In this document: in pieces, positions 8,048-51,595 of the stretch
Layout: the number at the start of each line of letters is the position of its first letter
How positions within the stretch are numbered: the stretch's first letter is position 1
Source of the DNA: Opitutia bacterium
GTDB lineage: Bacteria > Verrucomicrobiota > Verrucomicrobiia > Opitutales > JABJCN01
Assembly: GCA_038125285.1 (NCBI GenBank)
Contig: JAYPDO010000008.1
Span: 1-51,595 of the forward strand
Direction: 5' to 3'
Length of the DNA: 51,595 nt
Position numbers and translations under genes: made by a program
Notes under the pieces: model-generated
What the model was told of the DNA's origin: nothing
The model's input: only the letters and a program-made list of their open reading frames with translations
Databases searched by the model: none

Positions 8048-8155
8048 TCCCGGCCTTCGGCTATAAAAGGGTGTGCGAGAACTTACGCCCGCGCCAATGA
8101 AGCGCAAGCTGGAATCCATACACTGTGGCGGGGACAACGCTGTCCGGCTTGCCCC

Positions 8156-10444: not shown

Positions 10445-10519
10445 TCGGTGTTTCGGTACAAAAGGGTACAATTGACTGGTCGGGAAGTTTTCAATCGCGC
10501 CGGGATCTGGACGCTGGCT

Positions 10520-27496: not shown

Positions 27497-27877
27497 GGGC
27501 TTTCTAGAGATAGCGTGGATTGATTGTGGATTGGAAGTCCGTCCCTTATGCCAATCCCATGCCAATCTTTTGTGTCTGGCAAATCCCTTTCCAGGAGGGG
27601 GGGATCCAGTGTCCCTGTGATTTTCGATTGAGCTAAAAATGTACCTTTTGTGGCCAATAATGTCCACGATGGCCGATTTCCATGGTTTACTTCTTTAGTG
27701 AACCAGGGTAGTTTGTTTCCGTCTCTGACTGGGATCAGTTCCGGCACTTGCGGTGTCGTGCCAATCGGCGCAGGAAACGGCGGTTGGTGTTTCCGAAAAG
27801 GGCGCTGGCTTCAATGGTTTGCTCCGTTCCATTTTCGGTGAGGATTAGTCCTTCATTGCCAATTTTAATCCATGAAC

Positions 27878-28206: not shown

Positions 28207-29079
28207 TCACTTGAGGGTCTTAATGAGTTTACCGTCTTCGTAGCGTTTGAGGGAAACCAGTTCGCCTTCCTGAGACCATTCGTAGCTGTATCCCCAGAGT
28301 TTGCCGTTGCGCCATCCGTTTTCTATCCATTTTTTGCCGGGAGCGTACCATGCGGTGATGCGTTTGGGCTCCGACCCGATGATTTCACCTACTCGGTATG
28401 GGGTGCCGTTTTGGTACCAGCCTTGGATTTTCCCGGAGGCGATACCGTGTTCGTATGAGGACTGGAGGGCTTTTTGGCCGGATTGGAACCATTCAGTGGC
28501 CACCCCGTGGACGACGCCTTCTTTGTAGGGGTATTCGCTCTTTTTACTGCCGTCGGGATACCATCCGGTTGCGGTCCCTGTGGCTTGGTTGCCGTCCATC
28601 GCAACTTTGAAGCTGGGTTGCCCGTTGGGGTGGAATTGGGTGAGGGTGCCTTCGGTGGAACCGTTGACGTAGGTGACTTCGAAGCTACGGGTGCCGTCCG
28701 GGTGGGTGCGGTAGGCCAACCCGGTGAACGGTTCCATGTCCCCGACCAGGTAGACTTTGTCGGTCTTTCGAAGCTTAAATTGGTCGATTTCATCGTAATG
28801 GACTTCGCGTAGTGGCTTGGCTGACCCTGGGGGCGGGGTAACCGGTGCGGGTAGTGGCGGTTGGAGGGCAGGGATGGAATCTTCCGATCTGGAAGAGGTT
28901 GCTGTAATTGCGATCGGGGGAACGATCGCAGGAGTTTGGGGCGAGGGTTGGTCCTGGGGTGGGGCAGGGGGCGAGGGCTTGTGGTAAGCGTGCTTGGTGG
29001 GCGCGGGTTCACAACCCCACATCCCGAGCAGGAGAGGGATGCAGGCCAGGAGGGTTTGTCGTAAGGTCTTTGGGGTCAT
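28207..29079 (-). CDS. YwqK-family (MORN-variant repeat) lipoprotein with Pro-rich linker
   Basis: Lipobox LLLGMWGC, then a Pro-rich segment (PSPPAPPQDQPSPQTPAIVPP...), then repeats FTGLAYRTHPDGTRSFEVTYVNGSTEGTLTQFHPNG...GWYPDGSKKSEYPYKEGVVHGVATEWFQSGQK. It starts 10 nt after the FtsX-like gene stop. Confidence 0.85.
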   Translation of the reverse strand: MTPKTLRQTLLACIPLLLGMWGCEPAPTKHAYHKPSPPAPPQDQPSPQTPAIVPPIAITATSSRSEDSIPALQPPLPAPVTPPPGSAKPLREVHYDEIDQFKLRKTDKVYLVGDMEPFTGLAYRTHPDGTRSFEVTYVNGSTEGTLTQFHPNGQPSFKVAMDGNQATGTATGWYPDGSKKSEYPYKEGVVHGVATEWFQSGQKALQSSYEHGIASGKIQGWYQNGTPYRVGEIIGSEPKRITAWYAPGKKWIENGWRNGKLWGYSYEWSQEGELVSLKRYEDGKLIKTLK

Positions 29080-29089
29080 CGGCGTCGTT

Positions 29090-30277
29090 TTAGGAACGGG
29101 CGAGTTTATAAAGTGTTGAACGTATGGAAATGGCCTGAGCCAAGGTTAATAGCAACACTGGGATGGATGCGTGTAAAAAAACTTGCGTCCAGGCGGGGGC
29201 TAGCAGGTCCAGTCCGAGGTGGCTGATGAGGCTTTCGCTGTATTTCAGGGCTCGGACGGACGCGAGGGTCGAGAGGGTGAGCAAGGTTGTGGAAATGGCG
29301 AGGAGGATCCGAAGGTAGTGCTGGAAGAGGGCGTTGGGAGGGTAGCCGATGGAGAGGAGGGTCTGGAGGTGGCTATTGGAGCGGTGGAGGATCATCTGGA
29401 AGCTCAACCAGTAGGCAAGAAAGGCGACCAAGAGGAGGGCTAGCCCTATGCTGCCGGTCGTGCCGAGGGCGGCTTTCAGGAGTTGATTGGCCTTGGATTC
29501 GGCGAGGAGTTCCCTGTTGGTCTCGTATTGATCGAGTTTTGCTGAAAGCTGCTGGCTTAGTGGGGTTTGCGCCTTGAGCAGCACCCTGTGGACTTCGTCC
29601 TTTGCTTTGGAGGCGGGTTGCAATGCGTTTGCCCAGTCGAGGAAGGATTTGGGGACGAGGATGGTGGTGATGCGGTCGCTGAAGGCCGAGATCCTGGCGT
29701 CGATTGGCAGGGGTTTCCCGTTCGGACCTGGGATGACCAAGGTGAGCGGGACTTTACCGACCGCTCCTTTGGAAACTTGGGGGTAACCGTTGGCGGGGGC
29801 GAACCCGAAGTTGTAGAGTTGGAGGAAGCTGTTGGGAAGGAGGGCTGGCAAACGGGGACTGCCGGGTTGCCAGTCCCAATTCTCCGGCGGGTTTTCCAGG
29901 AACCTGGGGGGGAGGGCTTCGAGGAAGAGTTCCGTCCGGTAGGCTTTGAACGCCCCGACTTTGAAAATGACTTCGGCTTGGAAGTTCGCGGTGGTGAAGG
30001 GCGTGATGTCTTCGACGCCCGGCGTGTCCCGTAATTCTTCGATCTCCTTTGTTTTGAAAAGGGGCTTGAACCCTGGGAGGTTGCTCATCAGGGAGACTTT
30101 GTGCGCCAGGGTGAGGTAGCGGGGCGGGAAGAGTTCGTCCTGTTTTGCGAGGTAAACCTGGAAGGATTTGTGGGTTTCCCATGCCAGCACTAGCAATGTG
30201 ACCCCAAAGAATGCGCCGGTACAAGCCAGTAGGACTTGCCAGAGAGGTTGGTTGCGCCATAGGACTCGGTATAGCAT
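29090..30277 (-). CDS. FtsX-like (MacB/LolCE-type) ABC permease-like membrane protein
   Basis: From ATG 30275-30277 (MLYRVLWRNQPLWQVLLACTGAFFGVTLLVLAW): one N-terminal TM, a ~250-aa extracytoplasmic domain, then three C-terminal TMs. An FtsX-type loop lies between them: LSFQMILHRSNSHLQTLLSIGYPPNALFQHYL (cf. eR.rEigiLkalGa....i). Confidence 0.75.
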   Translation of the reverse strand: MLYRVLWRNQPLWQVLLACTGAFFGVTLLVLAWETHKSFQVYLAKQDELFPPRYLTLAHKVSLMSNLPGFKPLFKTKEIEELRDTPGVEDITPFTTANFQAEVIFKVGAFKAYRTELFLEALPPRFLENPPENWDWQPGSPRLPALLPNSFLQLYNFGFAPANGYPQVSKGAVGKVPLTLVIPGPNGKPLPIDARISAFSDRITTILVPKSFLDWANALQPASKAKDEVHRVLLKAQTPLSQQLSAKLDQYETNRELLAESKANQLLKAALGTTGSIGLALLLVAFLAYWLSFQMILHRSNSHLQTLLSIGYPPNALFQHYLRILLAISTTLLTLSTLASVRALKYSESLISHLGLDLLAPAWTQVFLHASIPVLLLTLAQAISIRSTLYKLARS

Positions 30278-30552
30278 GGGGATCGATTTTGGTGGCAACC
30301 CCGCCCTTGTGCAACGGGAAAGAAGGGGTGCCATTGCGGCGGAGGTTTGGATCGAGTGGGAATATCGTCGCCTGGTTCGGTGACCGGACCAGGCTCTTAG
30401 CTTGAATGCTTGGATTTGGATCCAATTCTGTTGTAGCCCGCTATCTCTGTTTCCTACTGTTCAAGACAAGGTTCCAAGGGATCGCAGGGGATGCAAGTGG
30501 TCAGGTAAGGACGGGCTTGCCAGGTGGGGCCATTTTTGTTGAGCCGTAGCAG

Positions 30553-39763: not shown

Positions 39764-41776
39764 CTAATTCCCCCGGAGGAAGTTGTTGAGCAAGCCCTTG
39801 ACTGCGTCTTCATTGCTTGGTTGCTTCTTTTCCTCCTCCTTACCCGTTTCTGCCGCTGGTTTTTCCTCACTTGGCTTTGATTGTGGGAATAATCCACCGG
39901 GCAATTTGAACCCGCTTCCCCCCCCGATTTTGGGAAGTTGGATGCCTTGTCCGCCTTCGCCAGTTCCGGGGATCAGCCCTTGGGGCAGTTTGTCCCCAAG
40001 TTTGTCCTTCAGGAATGATGCCCCTTTTTCTTGGATCAATTGCTTACCTCCACTCAGGGCGGCATCTTTCGCCGCTGCGACCACTTGTTTGGAATCGACC
40101 TTGATCCGTGGGTTGTCCAGGGGACCCTTCACAGCGATCGGCAAGGCCAGTTGGCCTAACGTCGTCGTGCCAAGGTGGGGGATTTCAAGCTGGGCATTGT
40201 TCAAAGTCACCAATAACGGCAAGTCCACTACCATGCCGTCTCCCTGGTTGCTCCAAACCCCTTGGGTGGAGATGTCCAACGTCCCCCCTTTAAGCGGATT
40301 TTTCCCTCCGATTTTGATTCCTCCCACAATGTCTTCCGCAGGAATCCCCTTGTAGTGGAATTCCATCGCCTTGCCGTTCTCCGAACCGCTTTCCGCGCCA
40401 CCCAGGGATATCCTTGCCCCAAACGTCCCTTTGGATGACTTCAGGGCGATTTCCTTTTCCGCATCGACCAACCATGGGTGTGAGGAGAGGTTTTTCCCTC
40501 GGATTTCCACAGGCTCTTCTTCCAATCCCGGCACTTTGACTTTCTCCGCCAAAACTTCCCCGACCAATACTGCCGGGATTTCTTCCAACAAATGCAATGC
40601 CCTGACCGAGCCATGCCCGAACTCCTCGATTTGCCTTTTGATTTCTTCTGCCCGCGTTTTCTTTGGAGTGGATGCGCCTTTGCCTTTGTCGCCAGCTTTA
40701 TCGTCACCCTCTTTATCCCCGGACATGCCTTCAACCCATTCCTTCAGTTTGGCCAGCTTCTGTTTGATCTCCGTCGCCTGCTTCACGTAGTCATCAATCG
40801 TCTTTTGTTCCGGATCATTGGACGCAGGAGGTTCAGAGACCTTGGGCGGTTTCCCTACGTGCTCCCCCGGACGGTCGCGCTTTTCCCCATGGGTGGCATT
40901 CCGCACCAGGATCCGGTCTAGCTTGATCCGCTTCCGTAGCAAATCCTTGGTGTTGATGTCCGCCTCCAGCTTTTCAGCGCGGAAAAGGTCGGTTTCCAAG
41001 TTCGAGGCATCCGCGATGGCCAGCCCTTCCACGGTCAACTTGTTCGACTTGAAATCCACTTCGGCCTTGTCCACCTCGACCGTTGCACCATTGGCCCGCT
41101 CCAAGCCCTCCCGTAGCACCGTGGTCAGGATATCTTCCTTCATCAGCAGCCCCAAGCTATAAAATAAGAGCCCTAGGAAGACCACGAAAACGATACCCAA
41201 CGGCCTTACTGGGTTTCCGATCTTTTTGCCGAGGAATTCCTCGTAGGATTTCTTCTTCTTGCGTCCTCCGAGGAAGACCCAGGACAAGATCTTTACCCCG
41301 ATATTGGAAGACCATTTGATGAATTTCTCACTCCCTTTTTCCAGTGCCACCATCTGCTTCCTGAACTTGGTGACAAGCCAGGCCGCAGCAACCCCGGTCA
41401 AGACCCCAAAGAGCAGTCCCACGGCTTGCCCCCCTGCCACCAAGTAGTGCTCGAAGCCGAAGAAGGCAAGTACCGGGCTGTTCACCATCACTTTGAAGAT
41501 GCCCTGCAACGGGCCGTCCAGCAGGAACCTGCCGACTTCGAAGCTGACAGGAACAAGTGGGATCGAGACCAATTTCGCCAGGCCACCAATTAGGGCCGAC
41601 ATACCCAGGTTAGCATTGACGATGATCAGGAGGAAGACCATGCACAGCAGTAAGCCCGGAGCCTCCCTAAAGCTCGGCACAAAAGCAAGCATGCTGGCAA
41701 GGATGCAAGCAGCCATGAGTTGGAATGGGGTGGAATCCCCCCTGAGGATTGAGCCGATACTCCTGGATAATGACAT
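39764..41776 (-). CDS. membrane protein fusing a TIGR03546-like N-terminal module to a TIGR03545-like (AsmA-like) body
   Basis: From ATG 41774-41776. The N-terminal ~150 aa (FQLMAACILASMLAFVP...NANLGMSALIGGLAKLVSIPL...LVTKFRKQ) resembles TIGR03546. A TM then leads into ANGATVEVDKAEVDFKSNKLTVEGLAIADASNLETDLFRAEKLEADINTKDLLRKRIKLDRILVRNATHGEKR, which resembles the start of TIGR03545. Assigned from memory of these families. Confidence 0.75.
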   Translation of the reverse strand: MSLSRSIGSILRGDSTPFQLMAACILASMLAFVPSFREAPGLLLCMVFLLIIVNANLGMSALIGGLAKLVSIPLVPVSFEVGRFLLDGPLQGIFKVMVNSPVLAFFGFEHYLVAGGQAVGLLFGVLTGVAAAWLVTKFRKQMVALEKGSEKFIKWSSNIGVKILSWVFLGGRKKKKSYEEFLGKKIGNPVRPLGIVFVVFLGLLFYSLGLLMKEDILTTVLREGLERANGATVEVDKAEVDFKSNKLTVEGLAIADASNLETDLFRAEKLEADINTKDLLRKRIKLDRILVRNATHGEKRDRPGEHVGKPPKVSEPPASNDPEQKTIDDYVKQATEIKQKLAKLKEWVEGMSGDKEGDDKAGDKGKGASTPKKTRAEEIKRQIEEFGHGSVRALHLLEEIPAVLVGEVLAEKVKVPGLEEEPVEIRGKNLSSHPWLVDAEKEIALKSSKGTFGARISLGGAESGSENGKAMEFHYKGIPAEDIVGGIKIGGKNPLKGGTLDISTQGVWSNQGDGMVVDLPLLVTLNNAQLEIPHLGTTTLGQLALPIAVKGPLDNPRIKVDSKQVVAAAKDAALSGGKQLIQEKGASFLKDKLGDKLPQGLIPGTGEGGQGIQLPKIGGGSGFKLPGGLFPQSKPSEEKPAAETGKEEEKKQPSNEDAVKGLLNNFLRGN

Positions 41777-42295
41777 AGCACCCGTATGAAAAGTGGGGCT
41801 AACCGACAGTGCAAGGGGCAACTCGCGTCAAGGAAACTTTGCCAGAAATTCCCCGAATGCGGATGCGTACATCGGAATCCTTGAATACATGGTGTCGGCC
41901 AGGTACTCCCTTAGTTTCCCCACCATACCCTTTAAGCTCTCAATTCGGCTAGGAAGCTCCCTTAGGCATGTGAAATGGACAGTGGAAGGGACGTAGGGAT
42001 TGCACTTTCCCTGAATTTGGGTTTCACGCGGTCAAAATCGACCCAACTGACCGTCATGACCTTCGGCAAGGCTTCGACCCTTGTCTGGATGGCCTGCACA
42101 GTTCTTTCCGGCAGCGGGTTCCCATCCAGGAACTCGAACCCCAAATCTAAATCCGCTCCCAAGGCCACACATTTGGTTGCCAGAATTTCCTACTCTTGGA
42201 TCAACCTCTGGGGTACGGGATATTTTTGGAGTCTTGGTGCATTTTGGATGGCTGTCCTTCATGCCCGGGACTCACAAGGAATCAAGCATTCCGGC

Positions 42296-43222
42296 TCACC
42301 ATTTGCCTTCCGTCGCCAGCAAAGCCCAGCAGGTCGCCGATATTGAGATAAACTGGTCTTTGCCATGGGGAAACCCGCTCTCGAAATACTTTTGGATGGG
42401 TTTGCTCCGGCTCTGGACGAGCCAGGTGCCGTCCGGTTGTTGGTGCCTGGCGAGCCACTGCTTGCCGAGTTCAAATGCGGGGCACGATTCCGATATTTGG
42501 CCAGATTCGAGGAGGGCTACCAACGCTTGCCCGGTTGCATAGGCATCACTTTCCATACCCGGAAGCTGTGCCCATCCTCCCTCCTCCCTTTGAAGTGAAA
42601 GAAGGGCTTTGCCCGCATCATCAGTATCTTTGCCTGCCCAGTACAACCCGAGCAACCGGAACGCATGGCCTTCTGTTGAATCGGGGCGGTTAATCCTTAA
42701 CCAATTGGCACCTGCCTCCACTTGGCCTCCAACAGTATCCGAATAGTTTTGGAGGCCTTGGATTGCAAGGGCTGTCGCTGTGAAGTGGCTATCCTCAAGG
42801 GGTGGCCTGTGGGTAAGGATCCTCCAACTTCCGTCCTTTTGCTGCGTCTCCAACAAATACTTTACCAGTGCCTGTGTTGTCCCGTCTGGCCTGACTTCTG
42901 CTTCGGCCAATCCAAGCAGGGCATAGCCCGCAGTATAAGGCCCGCCCGGCACGCCTTGTCCCTGGGAAAGTTTGCCTGCAAGCCCTTTGAAATATTCCAA
43001 TGTAAAGGCGCTTTGAGCCTCGATTACCTTTATGGATTCCAAAGGCGAGCACCTGGCCATGACCCATAAAGGGAGGGCTTGGTGGTGGCAGGAAAAACAT
43101 TCCTTTTGTGCAATGTATGTGATGGAACTTTGTCGGATCAAACCGATGGCCGCATTTGGATTCGAGCCAACAAGCCCATGCCAAGCAAGGGAGCCTACGG
43201 CCATGATAAAAACCGCCCTCAT
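42296..43222 (-). CDS. prenyltransferase/squalene-oxidase-repeat (alpha/alpha-toroid) protein with an N-terminal CxxCH motif
   Basis: CFSCHH (c-type haem motif) near the N-terminus. Repeated QxxDGSW-type units: QQKDGSWRI, QREEGGWAQ, QQPDGTWLV. It is the last gene of the minus-strand operon, 39 nt after the preceding stop. Confidence 0.75.
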   Translation of the reverse strand: MRAVFIMAVGSLAWHGLVGSNPNAAIGLIRQSSITYIAQKECFSCHHQALPLWVMARCSPLESIKVIEAQSAFTLEYFKGLAGKLSQGQGVPGGPYTAGYALLGLAEAEVRPDGTTQALVKYLLETQQKDGSWRILTHRPPLEDSHFTATALAIQGLQNYSDTVGGQVEAGANWLRINRPDSTEGHAFRLLGLYWAGKDTDDAGKALLSLQREEGGWAQLPGMESDAYATGQALVALLESGQISESCPAFELGKQWLARHQQPDGTWLVQSRSKPIQKYFESGFPHGKDQFISISATCWALLATEGKW

Positions 43223-43261
43223 CCTAGGCCATTCATCAGGTTAGGGAAGGGGACTGGTCCT

Positions 43262-44158
43262 TTACGAGATCAGTTTCCTTAGTTCCGCCAAATACTGAGG
43301 TACGGCGTCGAAGGGATTTTCATTGGCTTCGTATTCCAGGACGACGTACCCCCTGTATTTCGCTTCCTTCAGTATGCTGACGAACCGTCCCAGGTCCGCC
43401 GGGATCTTTTTTCCAGATTCGTCCCTCACCTCCACCTTCAATTGGACGGTGGCGGCATAGGGTGCGGAGCGCGCGAAAGCTTCGTAGGGATCTTTGTCGA
43501 TGAAATTCCCTGAATCGAGGTTTACCGCGAACCATGGCGAATCCACCCGTTTCACGATCGCTTCCAGCCTCTTGGAATCCATGAGGAAATCATGGTTTTC
43601 CAAGGCAAGGATGACCCCACTTTCGCCCGCCCGTTTGCAGGCCTTTTCCAAGTTCCGTACCGCATTGTCAATCGCCTCTTCTTCAGAGACACCCTTGGGT
43701 GCCTTCCCAGCGAATACACGGATGATCGGGCACCCGATTGCAGCATAGTAATTGACCCAAGTGTCCACATGGTCGTGCCATTTGTCCAATTCCGGTCCGT
43801 CGGGTAGGGTGAAAACATTACGGATTGCCCCGCTGCTGATGTCCAGGCCGTTGAGGTGCGCCCTTCGCTTCAACTGGGCAAGGAAAGCAGGCGTGACCAC
43901 TTTCGGGAAGAAATAGGAGGTCGGTTCCACGGCATCCAAATCCTGACCAGCCGCCCAGTCTACAAAGCCTAACATGTCCATTGCCCCTGGGGTGCCGGGT
44001 GCGGCAGTCAATTGGGTGCGGAAGGAGTAAGCGGCCAGGCTCAATTTGAGCTTGGATTTGCAGCTGCGCGGGATCGGTTCGATGGCGGCAAGGCCAGCAC
44101 CCAAACACAGGGCTACCGAAGCGGTGGAAGTGGTTTTGAGGAATGTACGGCGGTTCAT
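43262..44158 (-). CDS. TAT-exported sugar phosphate isomerase/epimerase-family (xylose-isomerase-like TIM barrel) protein
   Basis: Twin-arginine leader MNRRTFLKTTSTASVALCLGAGLAA. IIRVFAG, ILALENH and VNLDSGNF are typical AP_endonuc_2/TIM-barrel metal-ligand blocks. Confidence 0.88.
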   Translation of the reverse strand: MNRRTFLKTTSTASVALCLGAGLAAIEPIPRSCKSKLKLSLAAYSFRTQLTAAPGTPGAMDMLGFVDWAAGQDLDAVEPTSYFFPKVVTPAFLAQLKRRAHLNGLDISSGAIRNVFTLPDGPELDKWHDHVDTWVNYYAAIGCPIIRVFAGKAPKGVSEEEAIDNAVRNLEKACKRAGESGVILALENHDFLMDSKRLEAIVKRVDSPWFAVNLDSGNFIDKDPYEAFARSAPYAATVQLKVEVRDESGKKIPADLGRFVSILKEAKYRGYVVLEYEANENPFDAVPQYLAELRKLIS

Positions 44159-44173
44159 ATTACAACTTTTGGT

Positions 44174-45733
44174 TCAAGTGAGGGTCCCATATAGCAAGTA
44201 AAACCCGATGACTGCAAAACAAGCGAAAGAGATCCACAGGAACAAATCCCAAGCCTTGCCGGCCAGTAGTCGCTTGTCGGTTTTCTTATAGCGGAAATAA
44301 AGGACGGATGCCCCCAGCATGGGTAACATCAAAGACTGCATGGCACCTGATATCATTACCAGTACAACTGGCTTCTCGACATACATAAAAAATAAGAGGC
44401 TGATGACGGCGAATAATACGTTACAAACCTTCACGTATTTTACCCGTTTGGCTTCATCTTCCAACTTGATGATACCGAGGAGGTTTGTGACGTCCACAAA
44501 CAGCCTCGACTGGGCCGCAATCGCGACAAAGAATGTGCTAAATAATACTGCGAACGCCCCGACAAGGAATATCATCTGTGCGGATTTGCCAAAAACCGGT
44601 TCATACATGACGGACAGCGTGCGGATCATTTCCGTCCCTTCGGGAACCAGACCCGTCCTTCCCAGGATAGCGGCGCCAAGCAGGTAAAACGCAAGGGTAC
44701 AAAACGTGTAGACAAACATGGATCCCCATGCGTCGAATTGCATCACCTTCAACCATCCTTTCGCCCTGGTAAGCCATTTGTCGCCTTCTTCCTTTGGCCC
44801 GACATGTTTCCCGTACCCCTTTTCCAGGCACCAGTAAGGATAAGCAAGGAGTTCCGAAGCCCCGACACCGATTATACCAAAGGTCATCAGTGCCGTCCCT
44901 AACGGAGATTTACCAGCCGCTTTTTCAGCATCCGATACATCAGGGAAACCGAAGGACATCCCGTCCAGGAATTCCTTCATCGTCACCGCCCACTCCGGTT
45001 TGGACTGGAGGGCGAACAGGTTGTAAATCGTTATGACGCTGAAGGAGCAAACGAGGAACATGCAAAATTTCTCGATGAAAGAAAAGTTGCCCCAGACTAG
45101 TAAGATACATGCGACAAAGGTCAGGATTGCGGCCCAGATTTTTGCATCGTTACTTCCAGATTCTGCATCTGATTTTTGGGAAGATACCAATGTTTCCAAA
45201 CTATCTACCCTGGCTTTGGTTTTTTCCAATGCATCAGGTGAACTTTTCAGCCTGCCGTCTTGGTAGGCTGCCAGCATATTTTTGGAGACTTCCAGGCTGA
45301 CCTTGTTGTCCAATATTTCATTGTAAAATTTCCCTTGCTCCGTCAATGGGGCGCTGATGGCTAGGGCTTGGCCGACACCACCGACGATCCCGCCCTGCTG
45401 GGCAAGGGTAGCAATGAACATCAGGAACCAGTACCAGATGATCAGGTTCCCCCCGTGCATCTTCGGCCCGGGGACTTCGTTGAGCATCACGAGGGTAGTC
45501 TTGCCCGATGAAATGGCGTAACGTGCCAGTTCGATTTGGGTGAAGACTTTGATGATGCAGCCGATGAGGATGAGCCAAAGGAAGCTGAAATTGGCTTCCG
45601 CCCCCGTGCGGGTCGTGGCGATCAATTCCCCTGAACCGACGATGGAGCCTGCAAGGATCATCCCCGGGCCGAGGTGGGAGATGATGCCTTTTAGGTGCGT
45701 GGGTGCTGGAAGGGTCTGGTTTTCGTTGATCAT
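44174..45733 (-). CDS. Nramp-family-like (LeuT-fold) transporter, non-canonical metal-site residues
   Basis: LGPGMILAGSIVGSGELIATTRTGAEANFSFLWLILIGCIIKVFTQIELARY follows the Nramp TM1-TM2 pattern, but GSGE sits where DPGN is expected. There is a ~65-aa hydrophilic insertion (EQGKFYNEILDNK...SQKSDAESGSNDAK). The start overlaps the sulfatase stop (ATGA, 45730-45733). Confidence 0.8.
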   Translation of the reverse strand: MINENQTLPAPTHLKGIISHLGPGMILAGSIVGSGELIATTRTGAEANFSFLWLILIGCIIKVFTQIELARYAISSGKTTLVMLNEVPGPKMHGGNLIIWYWFLMFIATLAQQGGIVGGVGQALAISAPLTEQGKFYNEILDNKVSLEVSKNMLAAYQDGRLKSSPDALEKTKARVDSLETLVSSQKSDAESGSNDAKIWAAILTFVACILLVWGNFSFIEKFCMFLVCSFSVITIYNLFALQSKPEWAVTMKEFLDGMSFGFPDVSDAEKAAGKSPLGTALMTFGIIGVGASELLAYPYWCLEKGYGKHVGPKEEGDKWLTRAKGWLKVMQFDAWGSMFVYTFCTLAFYLLGAAILGRTGLVPEGTEMIRTLSVMYEPVFGKSAQMIFLVGAFAVLFSTFFVAIAAQSRLFVDVTNLLGIIKLEDEAKRVKYVKVCNVLFAVISLLFFMYVEKPVVLVMISGAMQSLMLPMLGASVLYFRYKKTDKRLLAGKAWDLFLWISFACFAVIGFYLLYGTLT

Positions 45734-47157
45734 CGCCAGTGTTCAGTTCGGTTTGAGGTGTGGATGGTTCCCCGGATGTGCCAGTCCCGGATCACCCCGA
45801 GTAGGTGGTCTCGGGTGTCGCGGTGTTCTGGGTTATGCCAGAGGTTGTCTAATTCGTCCGGGTCGCTCCGGAGGTCAAAGAGTTGGCCGCAGGGCTCGTC
45901 CAGAAAATGGACGAGTTTCCATTCTTTCGTCCTTACCATGGTCTGGTACTGGCCTTCGGTGTAATTTTTATCCCTGACTTGCTCGGCGAAAACGTAATCA
46001 CGCCCTTCGAAGGGTTGGCCAGCGAGGGCAGGGCCGAAGGAACGGGCTTGAAAAGTTTCCGGGATCGCGACACCTGCATATTCCAGGATGGTCGGGCCGA
46101 CATCCATGAGTTGGACTTGGGCCTCGCATTTTGCACCTGCCTCCACTTTGCCTGGTGCCCAGACGATGAGGGGGACTTTCGTCACGGTGTCGTACATCGT
46201 CCATTTTTGGCTATGGCCGTGGTCGGACAGGCAATCCCCGTGGTCAGAACTGAAGAAGATGAGGGTATTGTCGAGTTTGCCTGCCGATTCCAGCGCCCCT
46301 ATGATTTCACCGACTTTGTCGTCGATCATGGTCACATTGGCCAGATAGTGCTCCCGTTGGTCCCGGCGTTGGCTTTCCGTAGGTTCGAGGAGATGGACGA
46401 CCGAGTCGTGGTCAAACCCTGCATTGTGCAGACGCATCCCTTTGTAGGATTCCGGTTGGTTCTCCATGTCGTGCTTGTGGACAGGTTGGAGGGGGATGTC
46501 CTTGTCTTTATACCTATCCAAGTGCCCAGGGAGCGGGTCGTAGGGCGGGTGCGGGCCAGGGAATCCAACCTGAAGGAAGAAGGGTTTTTCTTCCTTGTAT
46601 TTTTGTATCCATTCGACCGCCCTGTCCCCAACATAATAGTCGGAATGGGTTTCCGGGGGAAGATCCCATGTGAAGGCTCCCATCCGATCTTTGTAATCCA
46701 GCCTTTTCCGGTATTCCTCCCGCTTTTGCTTCTTGTGGCCATTTCGCAACAGGTACTTGTCCCATTCATCCTGGTATTCCCCTCCTTCGAGGAAACGGTC
46801 TTTGTTTTCTACAATATGGCGTTCGTGGAATCCGCAGGGTGCCTCGAACGGCCAAGTGTGCATCTTCCCGATGTTTGTGCAGTGGTAACCTGACGCGGCC
46901 AGGTCTTCAACCCAGCCATGTGTCCAGGTGTCTGCATTTTGGAGGATGCCTGTAGTATGAGGATAATAACCCGTGAAAAGGCTTGCCCTGGATGGGGCGC
47001 AGGAAGGTGCCGTCACATGGCAATCCGTGAAGTGGCATCCCTCCTGTATCAGGCGGTCGAGGTTCGGGGTTTCCATGCAGGGGAACCCCAAACCTGCGAT
47101 CGTGTCGTACCTCTGTTGGTCCGTCAGGATAAAGACGATGTTCGGGCGGGTGGCCAC
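45730..47157 (-). CDS. sulfatase (formylglycine type), no signal peptide
   Basis: The GTG start at 47155-47157 is followed at once by ATRPNIVFILTDQQRYD...VTAPSCAPSRASLFTGYY (C-x-P-x-R) and SSDHGD. An in-frame TAA lies two codons upstream (the stop of the DUF1080 gene), so there is no room for a leader. Confidence 0.9.
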   Translation of the reverse strand: MATRPNIVFILTDQQRYDTIAGLGFPCMETPNLDRLIQEGCHFTDCHVTAPSCAPSRASLFTGYYPHTTGILQNADTWTHGWVEDLAASGYHCTNIGKMHTWPFEAPCGFHERHIVENKDRFLEGGEYQDEWDKYLLRNGHKKQKREEYRKRLDYKDRMGAFTWDLPPETHSDYYVGDRAVEWIQKYKEEKPFFLQVGFPGPHPPYDPLPGHLDRYKDKDIPLQPVHKHDMENQPESYKGMRLHNAGFDHDSVVHLLEPTESQRRDQREHYLANVTMIDDKVGEIIGALESAGKLDNTLIFFSSDHGDCLSDHGHSQKWTMYDTVTKVPLIVWAPGKVEAGAKCEAQVQLMDVGPTILEYAGVAIPETFQARSFGPALAGQPFEGRDYVFAEQVRDKNYTEGQYQTMVRTKEWKLVHFLDEPCGQLFDLRSDPDELDNLWHNPEHRDTRDHLLGVIRDWHIRGTIHTSNRTEHWR

Positions 47158-47163
47158 GGGTGG

Positions 47164-47982
47164 TTATTCCGCGGCTTCGTCGTAGTTCCCGAGATTGCGG
47201 ATCCAGATGTTGCGGAAACGCATTGGGTTGCCGTGGTCCTGGAGGACGATGGGACCCTTGGGGTCGTGCTTTTTCGAATAGTTGGCCACACGCTTGTGTT
47301 GGACTGTCCCGATGAACTCTTTGCGGTGGTGCAAAAGGACGCCATTGTGGATCACGGTGACGTTTGCATTTTTCACGAGTTTATCACCTTCCCACAGGGC
47401 ACTTTCAAAGATGACGTCATAGGTCTGCCATTCGCCCGGCTTTTTAACGGCGTTGCGAAGGGGAGGGTACTGCCCGTACATTGCCCCGCACTGGCCGTCT
47501 GCATAGCTCTTGTTGTCGTAGGAATCGAGGAGCTGGACTTCATAGTTCCCGAAGATGATCAGGCCACTGTTGCCGCGACCCTGGCTGTCCCCTTTGACTT
47601 CGGCAGGGGTGGCGAATTCCAAGTGGAGTTGGAAGTCCCCGAAATTCTCCTTGGTCTTGATCGTCCCGGACTTGGGTGTGACTTCCATGAAATTGCCGAT
47701 GATTTTCCATTCGACGGGCTTCCCTGGCTTTGTGTTCTCCCAGCCATCCAGACTTGTGCCGTCGAAGAGGACCGTGGCGTCGGATGGAGGGGGTGCCAAG
47801 TGGCTGAATGATTGGCCTGGGGTGACGACTTGAGGGCGGGGGCGGTTGTCGTCATGGACACGCCACTTTCCGTCCGGAAGGAACGGGGTGTCCGTGTAAC
47901 CGGTTGCGGGCTTGTTGTTATCGGCAGCTTGGAGCAATGAAGCTGTAGTGAGGGCAAGGAGGGTGGTTGTGAGGATTTTCAT
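47164..47982 (-). CDS. DUF1080 ('3-keto-disaccharide hydrolase') family secreted protein
   Basis: The internal ATG 47980-47982 gives MKILTTTLLALTTASLLQA. LFDGTSLDGWEN, FGDFQLHLEF, NSGLIIFGNYEVQLLD and IVLQDHGNPMRFRNIWIRNL are DUF1080 hallmarks. Confidence 0.88.
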   Translation of the reverse strand: MKILTTTLLALTTASLLQAADNNKPATGYTDTPFLPDGKWRVHDDNRPRPQVVTPGQSFSHLAPPPSDATVLFDGTSLDGWENTKPGKPVEWKIIGNFMEVTPKSGTIKTKENFGDFQLHLEFATPAEVKGDSQGRGNSGLIIFGNYEVQLLDSYDNKSYADGQCGAMYGQYPPLRNAVKKPGEWQTYDVIFESALWEGDKLVKNANVTVIHNGVLLHHRKEFIGTVQHKRVANYSKKHDPKGPIVLQDHGNPMRFRNIWIRNLGNYDEAAE

Positions 47983-48020
47983 GGGTTTCGTAAGTGGGTT
48001 TAAGGATAAATGGGGACGGG

Positions 48021-49430
48021 TCACACCATCTTGTAGAACTGCTCCCATCCCTTGCGTGGGGGTGGGCCTTCGAGGAGTGCATTGGCCTTGGCTTGGTTGC
48101 TGCCTCTGAACCGTTCCTTTTTCGTGTCGAATTCCAAGGTCTCATTGAGGGTTTGGCAGATGACACCGAGCATGAGGGTCTTGGTCAGGTCGCCTGCGAC
48201 TTGGAAATTGGACTGGGTTTTGGTCTCGCCCATGCAGGCCGCGGTAAATGCGGACTGGTGGTTGTACTTCGGGTTTTCCGCACGAAGGTGCTCCCGGAGT
48301 TCTGTGCGCTTTTCCGTGTTGATGATATTGGAAGTGCTGGAGTGGGAACCTCGGGTGATGGCGTAATCGGCTCCTTCCGGGTAGAGGATAGTGCCCGCAC
48401 CACCCAGCTTTGGGGTGGTAGGGTTCCCATCGTCCTCCTTGTCCATGAACTTGTCAGCGATTGCGGGATGGCAATCCTCGCCATCACGCCAGATGAGTTC
48501 GACTGCCTTCCGCTCGCAGTTGGATGCGAACTCCATTTTCATGTGGGAACTGAGGGGAAAAATCACGTCGTTGTGGTCGTCCATCAGGAGCGGGGTGATT
48601 TTGTGGGGTTGGCCGAGTTTTAGAAAGTCGTGGGCGAAGTCGATGATGTGGGCGCCCCAATCCCCTAGCATCCCATTGCCGTAGAGGTAGAAACCGCGCC
48701 AACTGAAGGGATGGTACTTGCTGCTGAATGGCTTCATCTGCGCGGGGCCGCACCAAAGGTCCCAATCCAGCGATGCCGGTTTTTCCTCGGGGGCGGGATA
48801 GGTGGAGAAGCGGGCATTTTTGTTCATGAAGAAAAGCCCTGGCGTTTTCCATGCTTCGATTTTGGTGATGTCCTTGACGATGCCATTCTTGACCAAACTC
48901 TTAAATTGCTCCGAACCGGCGGAGGTGTGGCCTTGGTTCCCCATTTGGGTGACTACGCCGAACTTCTTCTCCGCCTTCATGAGGAGGTCGGCTTCCCAGT
49001 AGGAGTGGGTCAGGGGTTTCTCTACATAAACATGCTTGCACATGGACATCGCCAACATGGCGGCAGGGAAGTGGGTGTGGTCGGGAGTGCAAACTGTGAC
49101 GGCGTCCACGTCCTTGCCCATTTTTTCGAGCATGACGCGGAAGTCCTGGAATTGCTTGGCGTCTGGGAAGCGCTCCAGGTTCTTCTCAATCCCCCCACGC
49201 TTGAAATCTACGTCACACCATGCTGTCACTTCAGCGCCCCCTGCACAAACGCCCGGAACGACTCCGTTAGCCCTGCCCCCGCATCCGATGACCCCGAGAT
49301 TGACCCGCTTGCTCGGGGGCAATTTCCCCTTTTCGTCGGGCTTTCCGGTCACCAAGTAGGAGGGCAGTACGGTAAAGCTGGAGATAGCTACGGATTTCTT
49401 GAGGAAGGAGCGGCGTTGGATTGGGTTCAT
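48021..49430 (-). CDS. TAT-exported Gfo/Idh/MocA-family oxidoreductase
   Basis: Twin-arginine leader MNPIQRRSFLKKSVAISSFTV. Rossmann block VNLGVIGCGGRANG. DAVTVCTPDHTHF and VYVEKPL are blocks typical of the family. Confidence 0.9.
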   Translation of the reverse strand: MNPIQRRSFLKKSVAISSFTVLPSYLVTGKPDEKGKLPPSKRVNLGVIGCGGRANGVVPGVCAGGAEVTAWCDVDFKRGGIEKNLERFPDAKQFQDFRVMLEKMGKDVDAVTVCTPDHTHFPAAMLAMSMCKHVYVEKPLTHSYWEADLLMKAEKKFGVVTQMGNQGHTSAGSEQFKSLVKNGIVKDITKIEAWKTPGLFFMNKNARFSTYPAPEEKPASLDWDLWCGPAQMKPFSSKYHPFSWRGFYLYGNGMLGDWGAHIIDFAHDFLKLGQPHKITPLLMDDHNDVIFPLSSHMKMEFASNCERKAVELIWRDGEDCHPAIADKFMDKEDDGNPTTPKLGGAGTILYPEGADYAITRGSHSSTSNIINTEKRTELREHLRAENPKYNHQSAFTAACMGETKTQSNFQVAGDLTKTLMLGVICQTLNETLEFDTKKERFRGSNQAKANALLEGPPPRKGWEQFYKMV

Positions 49431-49560
49431 TCTTTGGTAGGGTGCTGTGAAATATCGGGTTACTTCCGGAGAGGGGGATGGATTTGCCGGAGGGGCAATG
49501 TGGTGTCAAGGCCCGCATGGACGTTGACCCCAAATAGTTTTTGTCCATTCCATCAAGCCT

Positions 49561-50232
49561 ATGAAATTCGCCATCCCTGCCATCCTCCCCCTCCTTCCCT
49601 TTGCCCTCCTTGCCGGCCCTTGTTGGGTCGACCTAGGAAAGGACGACTTTGTCCAGCTCAACTGTGACCCGGATACATTCCAATTCAAGGAGGGGAACCT
49701 TATCTACTGCACTGGCAAGCCTATCGGCGGCCTGCGTTCCGCCAAGCCCTACAAAAATTTTGAACTGGAAGTCGAGTGGCGCCACCTGAAATACGCAGGG
49801 AATTCCGGCCTCTTCATCTGGTCTCCCAAAGATGTCCTCGACAAACTTCCCCGTAACACACTTCCCCAAGGCATCGAAATCCAAGTCCTCGACATCGGTT
49901 ACGAAGAAAACTGGCTCAAGAACAAGGGCAAACCCTCCGATTGGTTCACTAGCCACGGGGATGTTTTTCCTGTCGGGGTTTCCGACATGAAGCCCTTTCC
50001 CCCAGCCGCGCCGAATGGCAAACGCAGCTTTCCCAGCAAGCGGCTCAGCAAACCCTCCCCGGAATGGAACCATTACCACATTACCGCAATCGACGGGGTT
50101 GTCCGCCTTTCCGTCAATGGCGAAGAGGTGTCGGGGGGAAAGGAATGCAAACCTAGCGAAGGGTATCTCGTCCTTGAGTCCGAAGGGGCACCTGTGGAAT
50201 TCAGGGGACTGCGGATCAAAGAGCTCCCGTAA
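49561..50232 (+). CDS. DUF1080 ('3-keto-disaccharide hydrolase') family secreted protein
   Basis: Leader MKFAIPAILPLLPFALLAG. FELEVEWRHLKYAGNSGLFIW, GIEIQVLD and GYLVLESEGAPVEFRGLRIKEL. It is divergent from the Gfo/Idh/MocA operon. Confidence 0.88.
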   Translation: MKFAIPAILPLLPFALLAGPCWVDLGKDDFVQLNCDPDTFQFKEGNLIYCTGKPIGGLRSAKPYKNFELEVEWRHLKYAGNSGLFIWSPKDVLDKLPRNTLPQGIEIQVLDIGYEENWLKNKGKPSDWFTSHGDVFPVGVSDMKPFPPAAPNGKRSFPSKRLSKPSPEWNHYHITAIDGVVRLSVNGEEVSGGKECKPSEGYLVLESEGAPVEFRGLRIKELP

Positions 50233-50245
50233 GGTTCCGTGCCTC

Positions 50246-51097
50246 TTATTTCCCGGCGGGTTTGGCGAGTCCTGAGGTTTCGAGGATGAATTGGGCAAAG
50301 TCCGCCTGTTTCTGCTCGTCCTTGCCAAAGGTCCCGTGTGTGCCTGGATATTCCTTGTATGTGATGTCTTCCGGCGCCTGCTTGGCGTAGCGGATCATCA
50401 TGGAGACGAAGAGTTTGTTTTCTTCCTGGCGGCTTGGGTAATCGTTGTCCCCGCATTGGATGAAGATGGGGAAGGGTGTCTGGCGGACGTGGTATAGGGG
50501 GGCGAACTCGTCAGAAAGTCCGGTACGTGCTTCCAAGCCGCGTTCCTTGCGGACCGTGAAGTGGGTGATCATATGGCCACTGATAGGCAAAAGCCCGGCG
50601 ATGCGGTCGACATTGATCCCGCGATTATCCATCCAGCTTTTGTCCATTGTGATCATCGAGGCGATGTAACTGCCTGCCGACATGCCGCCGACAAAGATGC
50701 GGTCCGGATCCCCTCCGTACTGGCAGATGTTCTTAAATGTCCAAGCCAGGGCATCGGCCGCGTCGTCCAAGTACTCGGGGCATTTGGCTTGCGGGCTGAG
50801 GCGGTAGGAAGGCGCGACCAGGCAGACGCCTTGAGAGGTCAGGTTCGGGCCGCCCCTGCTCCCTCCTGTGATGCCTCCGCCGTGGAAGTAAACCAGCACG
50901 GGGAATTTCCCCTCTTGGGCCGCCGGCAAATAGATGTCGAGCTGGCACTTTTCACGTTGGTATTCCGAGGCATCCTCCGGGCCATAGTAGATTCCTTTGT
51001 GGACGGTGTCCGCGGAGGCATGAAACGTGGTTGTGGAGAAGGCGAGGAATGCCAGAGCCAGGCATGGGTTGGATATGGTGATTTTATTCGGTATCAT
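50246..51097 (-). CDS. secreted alpha/beta-hydrolase esterase (HGGG / GxSxG type)
   Basis: The internal ATG 51095-51097 gives MIPNKITISNPCLALAFLAFSTTTFHASA. Oxyanion block VLVYFHGGGITGG and nucleophile elbow GGMSAGS. Confidence 0.85.
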   Translation of the reverse strand: MIPNKITISNPCLALAFLAFSTTTFHASADTVHKGIYYGPEDASEYQREKCQLDIYLPAAQEGKFPVLVYFHGGGITGGSRGGPNLTSQGVCLVAPSYRLSPQAKCPEYLDDAADALAWTFKNICQYGGDPDRIFVGGMSAGSYIASMITMDKSWMDNRGINVDRIAGLLPISGHMITHFTVRKERGLEARTGLSDEFAPLYHVRQTPFPIFIQCGDNDYPSRQEENKLFVSMMIRYAKQAPEDITYKEYPGTHGTFGKDEQKQADFAQFILETSGLAKPAGK

Positions 51098-51128
51098 TAC
51101 TTCAAACTTTTGTACTGTATCTGTAGCT

Positions 51129-51595
51129 TTACAGGCGGGGAAGGGATTTGTTAAGTTGGTTGAGTTGCTGCCATAGGGTAATGGCGATGCGGCGGTGCCC
51201 CCTGTCATTGGGGTGTGCACCGTCCAGGGTATGGCCGGTGGCGAGGGTGTCGTGGAGGTCTATGTAGCCCCAACCATTTTCCTTTGCGGCATTGGCATAG
51301 GCTTCGCCTAATTTGGCCAGCCAGGGGGGAGATTGGTCGTTGAAACCGGCTTTCCGAAGGCGTGCGTCCAATTCAGAGGGAACCATGGTGGGCGGGGATA
51401 GAAGAACGAGCCTGGCTTTGGGTGCTTTCCTTTGGAATTGCCGGAGGATTTTTACAATGTTCCTGGCTGTTGCAGTTACGGTATCATCCGAGTGGCCATG
51501 GACACGGAGGTCGTTCGCTCCAAGTTGGAGGAGGATCCAGTCTGAATTTTCCGGGATTTTAGAAAGGGTTTCTTTCATCTTTCGGAGGTACGTGG
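51129..51595 (-). CDS. SGNH/GDSL-family hydrolase (partial; N-terminus beyond right edge)
   Basis: LLQLGANDL (block III) and DGAHPNDRGHRRIA (block V, DxxH). The frame stays open upstream of the listed Met to the window edge (..TYLRKMKETL), and the catalytic GDS block is not inside the window. Confidence 0.8.
   Translation of the reverse strand, partial: TYLRKMKETLSKIPENSDWILLQLGANDLRVHGHSDDTVTATARNIVKILRQFQRKAPKARLVLLSPPTMVPSELDARLRKAGFNDQSPPWLAKLGEAYANAAKENGWGYIDLHDTLATGHTLDGAHPNDRGHRRIAITLWQQLNQLNKSLPRL

Follow-up and report, generated by a model that had tools for sequence, protein, structure and literature searches.

A minus-strand gene cluster in a marine Opitutia bacterium brings a candidate 3-keto-glycoside cleavage set together with a sulfatase and an Nramp-like permease

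The window analysed here is a stretch of 51,595 nucleotides (nt) from an Opitutia bacterium (GenBank assembly GCA_038125285.1, contig JAYPDO010000008.1, positions 1 to 51,595 of the forward strand). Six consecutive open reading frames (ORFs) on its minus strand fill positions 42296-49430. A preliminary description, made from the sequence alone, had seen in this cluster a candidate route for the oxidative (3-keto) cleavage of glycosides, linked to a sulfatase. The tight packing of the six genes was borne out by the ORF listing and by independent gene calls, all six family assignments by Pfam and NCBIfam, and the second, divergently transcribed DUF1080 gene by a match to PF06439 with E = 6.5e-26. 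The genes, read in the direction of the minus strand and followed by the divergent one, are these:

48021..49430, minus strand: Gfo/Idh/MocA oxidoreductase of 469 amino acids (aa), exported by twin-arginine translocation (TAT), a BT2158/AL3-like candidate periplasmic glycoside 3-dehydrogenase (Pfam, NCBIfam, PDB, RRSFLK motif).
47164..47982, minus strand: Sec-exported DUF1080 protein (DUF1080a) of 272 aa, 4qhz-type subfamily, a candidate 3-keto-glycoside lyase/hydratase (PF06439).
45730..47157, minus strand: leaderless (cytoplasmic) Cys-type S1 sulfatase of 475 aa with a GTG start (PF00884 plus SGSH_C).
44174..45733, minus strand: Nramp-superfamily inner-membrane permease of 519 aa without metal-binding motifs (PF01566, NF037982).
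43262..44158, minus strand: TAT-exported xylose-isomerase-like TIM barrel of 298 aa, 4ovx-type subfamily, a candidate keto-sugar lyase or isomerase (PF01261).
42296..43222, minus strand: exported (alpha/alpha)6-toroid protein of 308 aa with an invariant CxxCHHQ (toroid repeats), probably a neighbour and not a pathway member.
49561..50232, plus strand: second DUF1080 protein (DUF1080b), divergently transcribed, with ESE in place of QxH (PF06439).

The junctions, as recomputed, measure 38 nt (oxidoreductase/DUF1080a), 6 nt (DUF1080a/sulfatase), -4 nt (sulfatase/permease, an ATGA overlap of the sulfatase stop with the permease start), 15 nt (permease/TIM barrel) and 39 nt (TIM barrel/toroid). The first of these values presupposes that DUF1080a starts at 47982; the longest ORF would begin at 48048 and overlap the upstream gene. 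The start at 47982 is the one chosen by the Joint Genome Institute (JGI) gene caller on three contigs from metagenomes in which the cluster recurs almost unchanged (99-100% identity), and the products called there (272, 475, 519, 298 and 308 aa) have the same lengths as the ORFs of the window. A scan of 41700-49800 for consensus promoters and terminators returned no more sites than shuffled sequence did, and none in the intergenic gaps; Rfam and tRNA scans over the whole window gave no features. That the six genes share a single transcript, as the word operon implies, is an assumption.

Three of the encoded families recall the 3-keto-glycoside oxidation-elimination-hydration pathway of Bacteroides thetaiotaomicron (BT2156-BT2160) and Alistipes (AL1-AL5) (PMC8121099; 10.1101/2024.03.25.586180). 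There, AL3/BT2158 is a TAT-exported Gfo enzyme with tightly bound NAD that oxidises C3; AL1/BT2156, a Co2+-dependent TIM-barrel "sugar phosphate isomerase", is a 3-keto-beta-glucoside 1,2-lyase; and AL2/BT2157, a DUF1080 protein, is both a 3-keto-alpha-glucoside lyase and a 2-hydroxyglucal hydratase (10.1101/2024.03.25.586180). The 3- and 4-OH groups are all that AL3/BT3 requires, and it accepts 6-phospho-glucose; another cluster, which comes from a Gram-positive source and encodes four enzymes, cleaves glycosides with a 6-sulfo or 6-phospho group (10.1101/2024.03.25.586180). Because of this biochemistry, the logic of the three families is established in the systems compared, and by analogy there is precedent for tolerance of sulfate away from C3.

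The oxidoreductase carries the N- and C-terminal GFO_IDH_MocA domains of Pfam. Its N-terminus, MNPIQRRSFLKK, is followed by a hydrophobic stretch and contains the twin-arginine motif RRSFLK. NCBIfam NF058561 (BT_2158_fam, glycoside 3-dehydrogenase) matches residues 5-443 with 279 bits. The closest solved structures are 8tdf (E = 6e-50; 32% identity) and 8tdh (E = 2e-48), followed by the C-glycoside 3-oxidase DgpA. The 8tdf chain was rebuilt from the printed alignment and aligned with six members of the oxidoreductase family. Its Gln, Arg, Trp, Asp, His and Tyr positions coincide with Gln161, Arg192, Trp195, Asp248, His252 and Tyr349 of AL3 at a constant offset of 29, and because of this match we infer that 8tdf is AL3. 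In AL3 numbering, Gln161, which contacts NAD, and Asp248 and His252, both at O3, are invariant across the six family members, and Trp195 is Phe or Trp, so that the aromatic character is kept. Kinship of the protein with the kind of TAT-exported oxidoreductase that oxidises the C3-OH of glycosides is thus borne out by the profile score, by 8tdf and 8tdh and by the conserved Gln, Asp and His, and the activity itself is predicted from them.

DUF1080a covers the whole PF06439 profile (E = 3e-42) and has a hydrophobic, Sec-type N-terminus. Its best match among solved structures is 4qhz (E = 5e-57), a structural-genomics protein of no known function. The conserved channel residues of BT2157 are Glu103, Asn134, Glu164, Gln166, Tyr190, Lys245, Gln273 and His275 (10.1101/2024.03.25.586180). 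Motifs of DUF1080a (E122, N138, E148-x-Q150, Y169 and Q248-x-H250) stand in the same order, as read by eye, with differing spacings and no reliable alignment. In DUF1080b, ESE is read where QxH would stand.

The TIM barrel matches PF01261 (E = 3e-29) and carries the twin-arginine motif RRTFLK. In a pairwise search of solved structures 4ovx was its sole match. We then drew its family from a library of 1.84 billion proteins (1,972 representatives at E <=1e-3) and used an alignment of 47 full-length members as a profile. With this profile 4ovx ranked first (E = 2e-38) and Art22 second (E = 2e-26), followed by the C-glycoside deglycosidase alpha subunits 7bvr, 7xrf and DgpC1 (E = 1e-17 to 1e-13) and last by L-ribulose-5-phosphate and ketose 3-epimerases. 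The nearest functionally characterised solved relatives of the family are therefore the alpha subunits of 3-keto-C-glycoside lyases; a literature search on "Art22" gave nothing relevant. Residues H189, D215, K241 and E275 are conserved in the 47-sequence alignment. The AL1/BT1 subfamily, no identifiable chain of which ranked among the top matches, has His-Asp-His metal ligands and a catalytic Glu.

The sulfatase matches PF00884 (E = 5e-51) together with SGSH_C. It starts with MATRPNIVFILTDQQR and has no leader, and all orthologues with a complete N-terminus begin within a few residues of RPNI(V/I)F and are likewise leaderless, as the preliminary description had held for the window protein. The active-site motif, SCAPSRASLFTG, includes SCAPSR and is of the Cys type, in agreement with the C/S-x-P/A-x-R signature; every orthologue that covers the active site is also of the Cys type (C-x-(P/A/S)-x-R). 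The best full-length solved relative, at a considerable distance, is 7oz8 (E = 5e-56, 194 bits). This is BT1918, an S1_46 enzyme that strips the 3-sulfate from the monosaccharide 3S,6S-GlcNAc. The remaining solved matches, GlcNAc-6-sulfatases among them, align chiefly through the C-terminal subdomain. Activity on a monosaccharide, as in BT1918, would fit what is expected of a cytoplasmic end-stage sulfatase.

The permease lies in the Nramp superfamily according to PF01566 (E = 2e-15, 57 bits, cut-off 29.8) and to NCBIfam NF037982, 'Nramp family divalent metal transporter' (98 bits, cut-off 50). The solved Nramp, NRMT and NRAT structures resemble the permease only marginally (E = 6e-4 or worse), and the resemblance is confined to transmembrane helices 1 and 2 (TM1-2), where a GSGE of the permease aligns to the DPSN of NRAT (DPGN or DPSN in Nramps). 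Twelve diverse members, 51-85% identical to the protein of the window, share GSIVGSGELIATT and GVGA(S/A)EL..YPYWC.EKGY with little or no variation, and none of the 12 contains DPGN, DP[GSA]N, MPH or PHN. The protein also carries a hydrophilic insert of about 70 residues after its third hydrophobic region. Because the metal-binding motifs of Nramps are absent, the permease is probably not a metal transporter. The name "Nramp-like transporter" in the preliminary description therefore holds for the fold, as the profile matches indicate, but is misleading as to function.

The permease could nonetheless be a divalent-metal importer (Mn, Co or Ca) that serves the sulfatase, the TIM-barrel lyase and the DUF1080 protein. 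Its profile scores above the cut-offs would agree with such a role, as would the weak match of the sulfatase to the NCBIfam 'manganese-dependent arylsulfatase' and the requirement of AL1/BT1-type lyases for Co2+ or Mn2+, EDTA abolishing the pathway (10.1101/2024.03.25.586180). However, the metal-binding Asp/Asn motif of TM1 has given way to the invariant GSGE, MPH occurs in none of the 12 members, the resemblance to solved metal transporters does not go beyond TM1-2, and two of the three supposed metalloenzymes would be periplasmic, beyond the reach of a cytoplasmic importer. We regard metal supply as very improbable.

The genomic partners of the permease include the cytoplasmic sulfatase, IolO/TM0416-like keto-sugar epimerases, a lactonase, a short-chain dehydrogenase/reductase (SDR) and a cytoplasmic Gfo protein, and no metal-homeostasis gene was found among the annotated neighbour families; planctomycete neighbourhoods are heterogeneous. 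The most economical reading is that the permease has an organic substrate, most simply that of the sulfatase; export of sulfate and transport of a cation are further possible functions. The family is very large in Planctomycetes, Verrucomicrobia and Chlamydiae (PVC): a single search gave more than 7,400 proteins, and its genome loci number at least 594. Automatic annotation calls it 'Nramp family divalent metal transporter' or 'Mn2+/Fe2+ NRAMP family transporter'. As to function, this annotation of the PVC family is probably wrong, and the absence of the metal-binding residues calls for caution in its use.

Conservation of the gene order in PVC genomes was checked at several levels. The nearest relatives of every protein of the cluster come from metagenome-assembled genomes (MAGs) of marine Verrucomicrobiota (Opitutae/Opitutia and Verrucomicrobiales), and more distant ones from Planctomycetota. 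In the closest locus, L172 (oxidoreductase 82% identical), the oxidoreductase gene is followed by a class 1 fructose-1,6-bisphosphatase (FBPase) gene and then by DUF1080a, sulfatase, permease and TIM-barrel genes, all at 81-84% identity, with 4-nt overlaps at the sulfatase/permease and permease/TIM-barrel junctions. Five of the six genes are thus present. An orthologue of DUF1080b (84% identity) lies on the opposite strand upstream of this block, together with an extra sulfatase gene, and the outer flanks have nothing in common with those of the window. Smaller parts recur elsewhere: oxidoreductase, FBPase, DUF1080a and permease genes in L084, which has neither the sulfatase nor the TIM barrel, the permease and TIM-barrel genes in L004, and the TIM-barrel, toroid and TIGR03545-like genes, which make up the downstream half of the window's arrangement, in L088. 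The FBPase gene (fbp; 10469-11491 in L172, 1315-2373 in L084) stands between the dehydrogenase and DUF1080a genes, where the window has only the 38-nt gap, and is treated here as an insertion without a role in the pathway.

At a second level, the permease profile was run against 185,579 species genomes and the best 80 loci were taken; in 77 of these the permease ORF was recovered and its neighbours were clustered. An orthologous sulfatase gene (55-62% identity) adjoins the permease gene in 15 of the 77, mostly directly upstream on the same strand. These 15 loci belong to Opitutia, Puniceicoccaceae, Verrucomicrobiales and one planctomycete, and the ATGA overlap of the pair was seen in two further MAGs. 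Given this layered conservation, the five-gene block is real but phylogenetically shallow, and the sulfatase-permease pair is a deeply conserved unit, with the permease as the hub that joins the pieces.

In nine Opitutia loci a TIM-barrel gene lies upstream of the permease gene or of the sulfatase-permease pair. Its product (for example in L008, L010, L011, L012, L014, L020 and L023) is leaderless and of the IolO/TM0416-like 5-keto-L-gluconate/ketose 3-epimerase type. It was considered as an orthologue of the TIM barrel of the window and rejected (23% identity, E = 0.011). In seven of the nine loci a gene for an unannotated protein of about 355 aa stands directly downstream, followed by one for a pseudouridine synthase.

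The last gene of the cluster encodes a protein with squalene-cyclase/prenyltransferase toroid repeats, a hydrophobic Sec-type N-terminus and a CFSCHH motif. Residues C42, C45, H46, H47 and Q48 are invariant in 15 homologues; THRPPLEDSHF, SDAYATGQAL and FPHGKDQFIS are further invariant motifs. Among the candidates scored, the family comprises more than 4,500 proteins at E <=1e-3, mostly of about 311 aa and from Verrucomicrobiota. In the source databases its members are named 'terpene cyclase/mutase family protein' or 'N-acyl-D-amino-acid deacylase'. None of them has been solved or characterised, and the family is without a conserved gene partner. An AlphaFold2 (AF2) model (pLDDT 85.7) is an (alpha/alpha)6 toroid, the neighbours of which among solved structures are single-domain class II terpene cyclases, complement C3d and GH88, with TM-scores of about 0.6; no haem protein appeared among the neighbours in this fold search, and neither Pfam nor NCBIfam gave a cytochrome match. 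Exported and with an invariant CxxCH, the toroid protein could well have haem c attached, and the family may represent a new kind of haem protein.

The preliminary description named this haem-motif protein as a possible re-oxidant of the dehydrogenase. If so, the toroid protein would be a c-type haem protein that accepts the electrons of the dehydrogenase, and the pathway would be respiratory and not redox-neutral; such a step could be added to the pathway proposed below without displacing it. The invariance of CxxCH(HQ) and the signal-like N-termini of the family are compatible with haem attachment in the periplasm, the toroid gene lies only 39 nt from the TIM-barrel gene, and re-oxidation by a cytochrome has been called conceivable by Nasseri et al. 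(10.1101/2024.03.25.586180). In the characterised homologues, however, the NAD of AL3/BT2158 is regenerated by reduction of the 3-keto sugar product and no cytochrome is needed (10.1101/2024.03.25.586180). Moreover, the toroid gene falls outside the conserved block: in L172 an HMA-like gene and a PQQ_2 beta-propeller gene stand after the TIM-barrel gene instead. In 80 further metagenome toroid loci we found no constant partner, only small lineage-specific clusters of neighbours, and no homologue of the window TIM barrel; there was one weak Gfo match (L098; 30% identity, opposite strand). The order TIM barrel-toroid-TIGR03545 recurs in L088 only, and toroid-TIGR03545 also in L089. The synteny partner of the toroid gene is the downstream ORF 39764-41821 (minus strand), which encodes 685 aa with TIGR03546-like N-terminal and TIGR03545/DUF748/AsmA-like C-terminal regions. 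Because the toroid gene lies outside the block, lacks a constant neighbour and has a synteny of its own, and because the characterised dehydrogenases need no external acceptor, its product is probably a neighbour rather than a member of the pathway. The proposed re-oxidation is unsupported by these comparisons, and we consider it very improbable. A protein of 295 aa that recurs upstream in toroid loci (L087 type) is not a TIM barrel.

Taken together, these data suggest to us, tentatively and with somewhat less than an even chance, that the cluster encodes two modules that act in series on sulfated glycosides: oxidative cleavage in the periplasm, then import, then desulfation in the cytoplasm. 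In the periplasm, the TAT-exported, BT2158/AL3-like dehydrogenase, with its NAD tightly bound, would oxidise the 3-OH of the sugar at the non-reducing end. DUF1080a and the TAT-exported TIM barrel would then carry out the 1,2-elimination of the aglycone and the hydration of the resulting enone, so that the sugar would be freed without a Koshland glycosidase and sulfate esters elsewhere than at C3 would be tolerated. At the inner membrane, the Nramp-fold permease, its metal site lost, would import the released sulfated (keto)sugar, and in the cytoplasm the sulfate would be taken off by the S1 sulfatase, which is of the Cys type, has no leader and would be coupled to the permease in translation. 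Of this scheme, the order of the genes, their families, the export signals, the conserved catalytic residues of the dehydrogenase and the conservation of the five-gene block and of the sulfatase-permease pair are observed; each activity, the substrate, the direction of transport, co-transcription and the linkage of the two modules are predictions. Two points favour such an integrated pathway: the block has survived in L172 although its flanks are rearranged, and in L084 the permease gene stays with those of the oxidoreductase and DUF1080a. A broader form of the proposal is that PVC bacteria hold an unrecognised class of Nramp-fold permeases in which the metal site has been swapped for an organic-anion site and which import sulfated (keto)sugars for a dedicated cytoplasmic sulfatase. 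Here this pair would be fed by a periplasmic oxidative, non-Koshland module, and sulfated glycans could be taken apart one sugar at a time, with no need to desulfate them outside the cell first. This broader form is speculative and, in our view, rather unlikely.

Several findings count against the pathway of oxidation, import and desulfation, and those on the enzymes come first. The 279 bits of the oxidoreductase do not reach the equivalog cut-off of NF058561, which is 750; because the score lies so far under it, the protein is to be taken as a homologue and not as an equivalog or orthologue of the BT2158 family. Of the residues that contact the sugar in AL3, Arg192 (O5/O6) is replaced by Pro at a variable position and Tyr349 (O2) by an invariant His. 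As judged by these residues the catalytic machinery is retained and the sugar pocket altered, and the replacements suggest a different substrate. In pairwise comparison DUF1080a does not significantly match the solved BT2/AL2 chains (8tda and 8tde, E = 2; 8v31, E = 0.7), and no chain identifiable as AL1/BT1 appeared among the top matches of the TIM barrel, either pairwise or with the 47-sequence profile. By this comparison DUF1080a and the TIM barrel appear to belong to subfamilies other than those of BT2157 and BT2156; "same family" therefore applies to them at the Pfam level only, and their putative lyase and hydratase roles are extrapolated from that kinship. Of the oxidative-cleavage set put forward in the preliminary description, the co-location of the same three Pfam families stands, but two of the three proteins appear to fall outside the characterised subfamilies. 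Finally, the nearest solved relative of the sulfatase is a 3-O-sulfatase, and a 3-sulfate would block oxidation at C3. If the sulfatase of the window were also a 3-sulfatase, the order "periplasmic oxidation, then cytoplasmic desulfation" would therefore need revision; at such a distance in sequence its specificity is not assignable.

The altered sugar pocket would also suit enzymes that do not act on glycosides at all. The dehydrogenase, the DUF1080 protein and the TIM barrel might instead use an inositol, an anhydrosugar or a keto-sugar acid, in the salvage of monosaccharides or cyclitols. The Gfo/Idh/MocA family includes inositol and levoglucosan dehydrogenases, the TIM-barrel family also resembles epimerases, and the TIM-barrel partner of the permease in Opitutia resembles IolO, of the inositol pathway. 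However, the NCBIfam models for levoglucosan, inositol and UDP-GlcNAc dehydrogenases match the oxidoreductase only weakly (<=46 bits), and its score on the glycoside 3-dehydrogenase model is about six times higher than on the inositol and levoglucosan models. Moreover, the characterised enzymes of the inositol and levoglucosan pathways are cytoplasmic, unlike those of the window, which are exported. Non-glycoside substrates thus appear improbable.

The neighbourhoods supply the other objections. The block is loose: in relatives it encloses a housekeeping class 1 FBPase gene, and in L084 the sulfatase gene is absent. In orthologues of the oxidoreductase at 75, 68 and 64% identity there is no DUF1080, TIM-barrel or permease gene within 9 kb, and the neighbours are sulfatases, an SDR, GH127 and GH106. 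The conservation named as a check in the preliminary description is found for the five genes of L172 and for the pair in 15 of 77 loci, but the adjacency of oxidoreductase and DUF1080 is gone at 75% identity and below. Genes for DUF1080, Gfo, TIM-barrel and sulfatase proteins are very abundant in these phyla, and the window itself has three DUF1080-like genes and two sulfatase genes, both of which make chance adjacency more likely.

These objections lead to the main alternative, in which two unrelated modules happen to be adjacent. The sulfatase-permease pair, with or without a TIM barrel, would be an autonomous system that takes up free, small sulfated molecules (sulfated monosaccharides, for instance, or other sulfate esters) from seawater and desulfates them; the dehydrogenase and DUF1080 would be general periplasmic keto-sugar enzymes for other glycans. 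The depth of conservation favours this alternative. The pair is far more widespread than the block, its neighbours vary (a lactonase in L085 and L086, an IolO-like epimerase in L008, L010 and L023), and outside the closest relatives it never adjoins the dehydrogenase or DUF1080a genes. The arrangement in L084 (oxidoreductase, DUF1080a and permease without sulfatase), the different neighbours of distant dehydrogenase orthologues and the density of these families in PVC genomes point the same way. On the other hand, the order of the five genes persists in L172 despite the rearrangement of both flanks, the junctions are very short throughout the cluster, and it is the permease, not the sulfatase, that stays with the oxidoreductase and DUF1080a in L084, which ties the permease to the periplasmic enzymes. 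We hold the two-module alternative to be unlikely, though a serious competitor, and keep the serial pathway as our working proposal.

In the sea, Verrucomicrobiota and Planctomycetota play a major part in degrading the sulfated polysaccharides of algae, and their genomes contain a great many uncharacterised genes for Gfo/Idh/MocA, DUF1080, TIM-barrel and sulfatase proteins. If the serial pathway is correct, oxidative glycoside cleavage would extend from gut bacteria (Bacteroides, Alistipes and a Gram-positive source) to marine lineages and to sulfated substrates, the large "Nramp family divalent metal transporter" family would gain a role as a non-metal permease, and the cytoplasmic location of some S1 sulfatases would be accounted for. 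The chemistry itself is already known from work of 2021 and 2024. Three points would be new: that it occurs in marine PVC bacteria with different DUF1080 and TIM-barrel subfamilies, that it is physically coupled to a sulfatase, and that the Nramp-fold permease has no metal substrate. Among the papers listed by our literature searches, none connects the 3-keto pathway with sulfatases, and none ties Nramp-like transporters to sulfatases in PVC bacteria.

The rest of the window is also rich in glycan-related genes, among them those for a sialate-O-acetylesterase-sulfatase fusion, a sugar ABC transporter, UxuA, a ROK-family protein (a sugar-kinase/repressor family), BNR and F5/8-type-C domain proteins, and a third, weak DUF1080-like protein. 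The fusion (8156-10471, minus strand; 771 aa) joins sialate O-acetylesterase-type (SASA) and S1 sulfatase domains, which suggests coupled de-O-acetylation and desulfation of a glycan. The ORF 1682-8137 (minus strand) encodes a protein of 2,151 aa with four lamin-tail domains and CotH kinase-like and Fn3-associated/chitobiase C-terminal domains. Three proteins with MORN-repeat variants are encoded on the minus strand at 11177-12712, 902-1579 and 28207-29079; the first of these also has a weak DUF1080-like region (E = 4e-5). The ORFs 24680-27667 (995 aa) and 29090-30334 (414 aa), both on the minus strand, have no Pfam match at E <=1e-4. DUF1080b is flanked by 50246-51220 (minus strand), which encodes an esterase of the BD-FAE/hormone-sensitive-lipase type with a signal-like N-terminus, and by the ORF 51129-51578 (minus strand), provisionally taken as GDSL-like. 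Esterases of a similar kind are found again close to homologues of the toroid and Gfo proteins (L087, L173).

Four known systems bear comparison with the cluster. Like BT2156-60 and AL1-5, it encodes a TAT-exported dehydrogenase, homologous over its full length and with the catalytic Gln, Asp and His kept, together with an exported DUF1080 protein and an exported xylose-isomerase-like TIM barrel, all three genes being co-directional within one cluster. It differs from them in the subfamilies of DUF1080a and the TIM barrel, in the replacement of Arg192 and Tyr349 in the dehydrogenase, in the sulfatase and permease genes embedded between those of the enzymes and in having neither a second, cytosolic Gfo reductase (the equivalent of BT2159/AL4) nor a SusR-type regulator. 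The hosts also differ, being marine Verrucomicrobiota in one case and gut Bacteroidota in the other.

The C-glycoside deglycosidases DgpA/DgpB-C and CarA/CarB-C (PMC8563793) similarly use a Gfo-type 3-oxidase followed by a TIM-barrel lyase that acts on the 3-keto sugar. DgpA is the next-best solved relative of the window dehydrogenase after 8tdf and 8tdh, and the deglycosidase alpha subunits are the nearest functionally characterised solved relatives of the TIM-barrel family, 4OVX linking the two. In contrast to these systems, the window has no gene for a beta subunit, its enzymes are exported, the similarity of DgpC to the TIM barrel is low (E of about 1e-13 with the family profile, 0.035 pairwise) and nothing in the window points to C-glycoside substrates. 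BT1918 (7OZ8) and the sulfatase of the window are both S1 formylglycine sulfatases, and the substrate of BT1918 is a sulfated monosaccharide. The window enzyme, a distant match, is of the Cys type, leaderless and hence presumably cytoplasmic, and lacks the HATCY specificity motif. Lastly, the permease shares its superfamily, by Pfam and NCBIfam, with canonical Nramp/MntH, NRMT (Mg) and NRAT (Al) proteins, and its TM1-2 can be weakly aligned to NRAT and NRMT. It departs from canonical Nramps in that DPGN (TM1) and MPH (TM6) are replaced by the invariant GSGE and GVGA(S/A)E, in its insert of some 70 hydrophilic residues and in the company of its gene, which includes those for a sulfatase and sugar enzymes.

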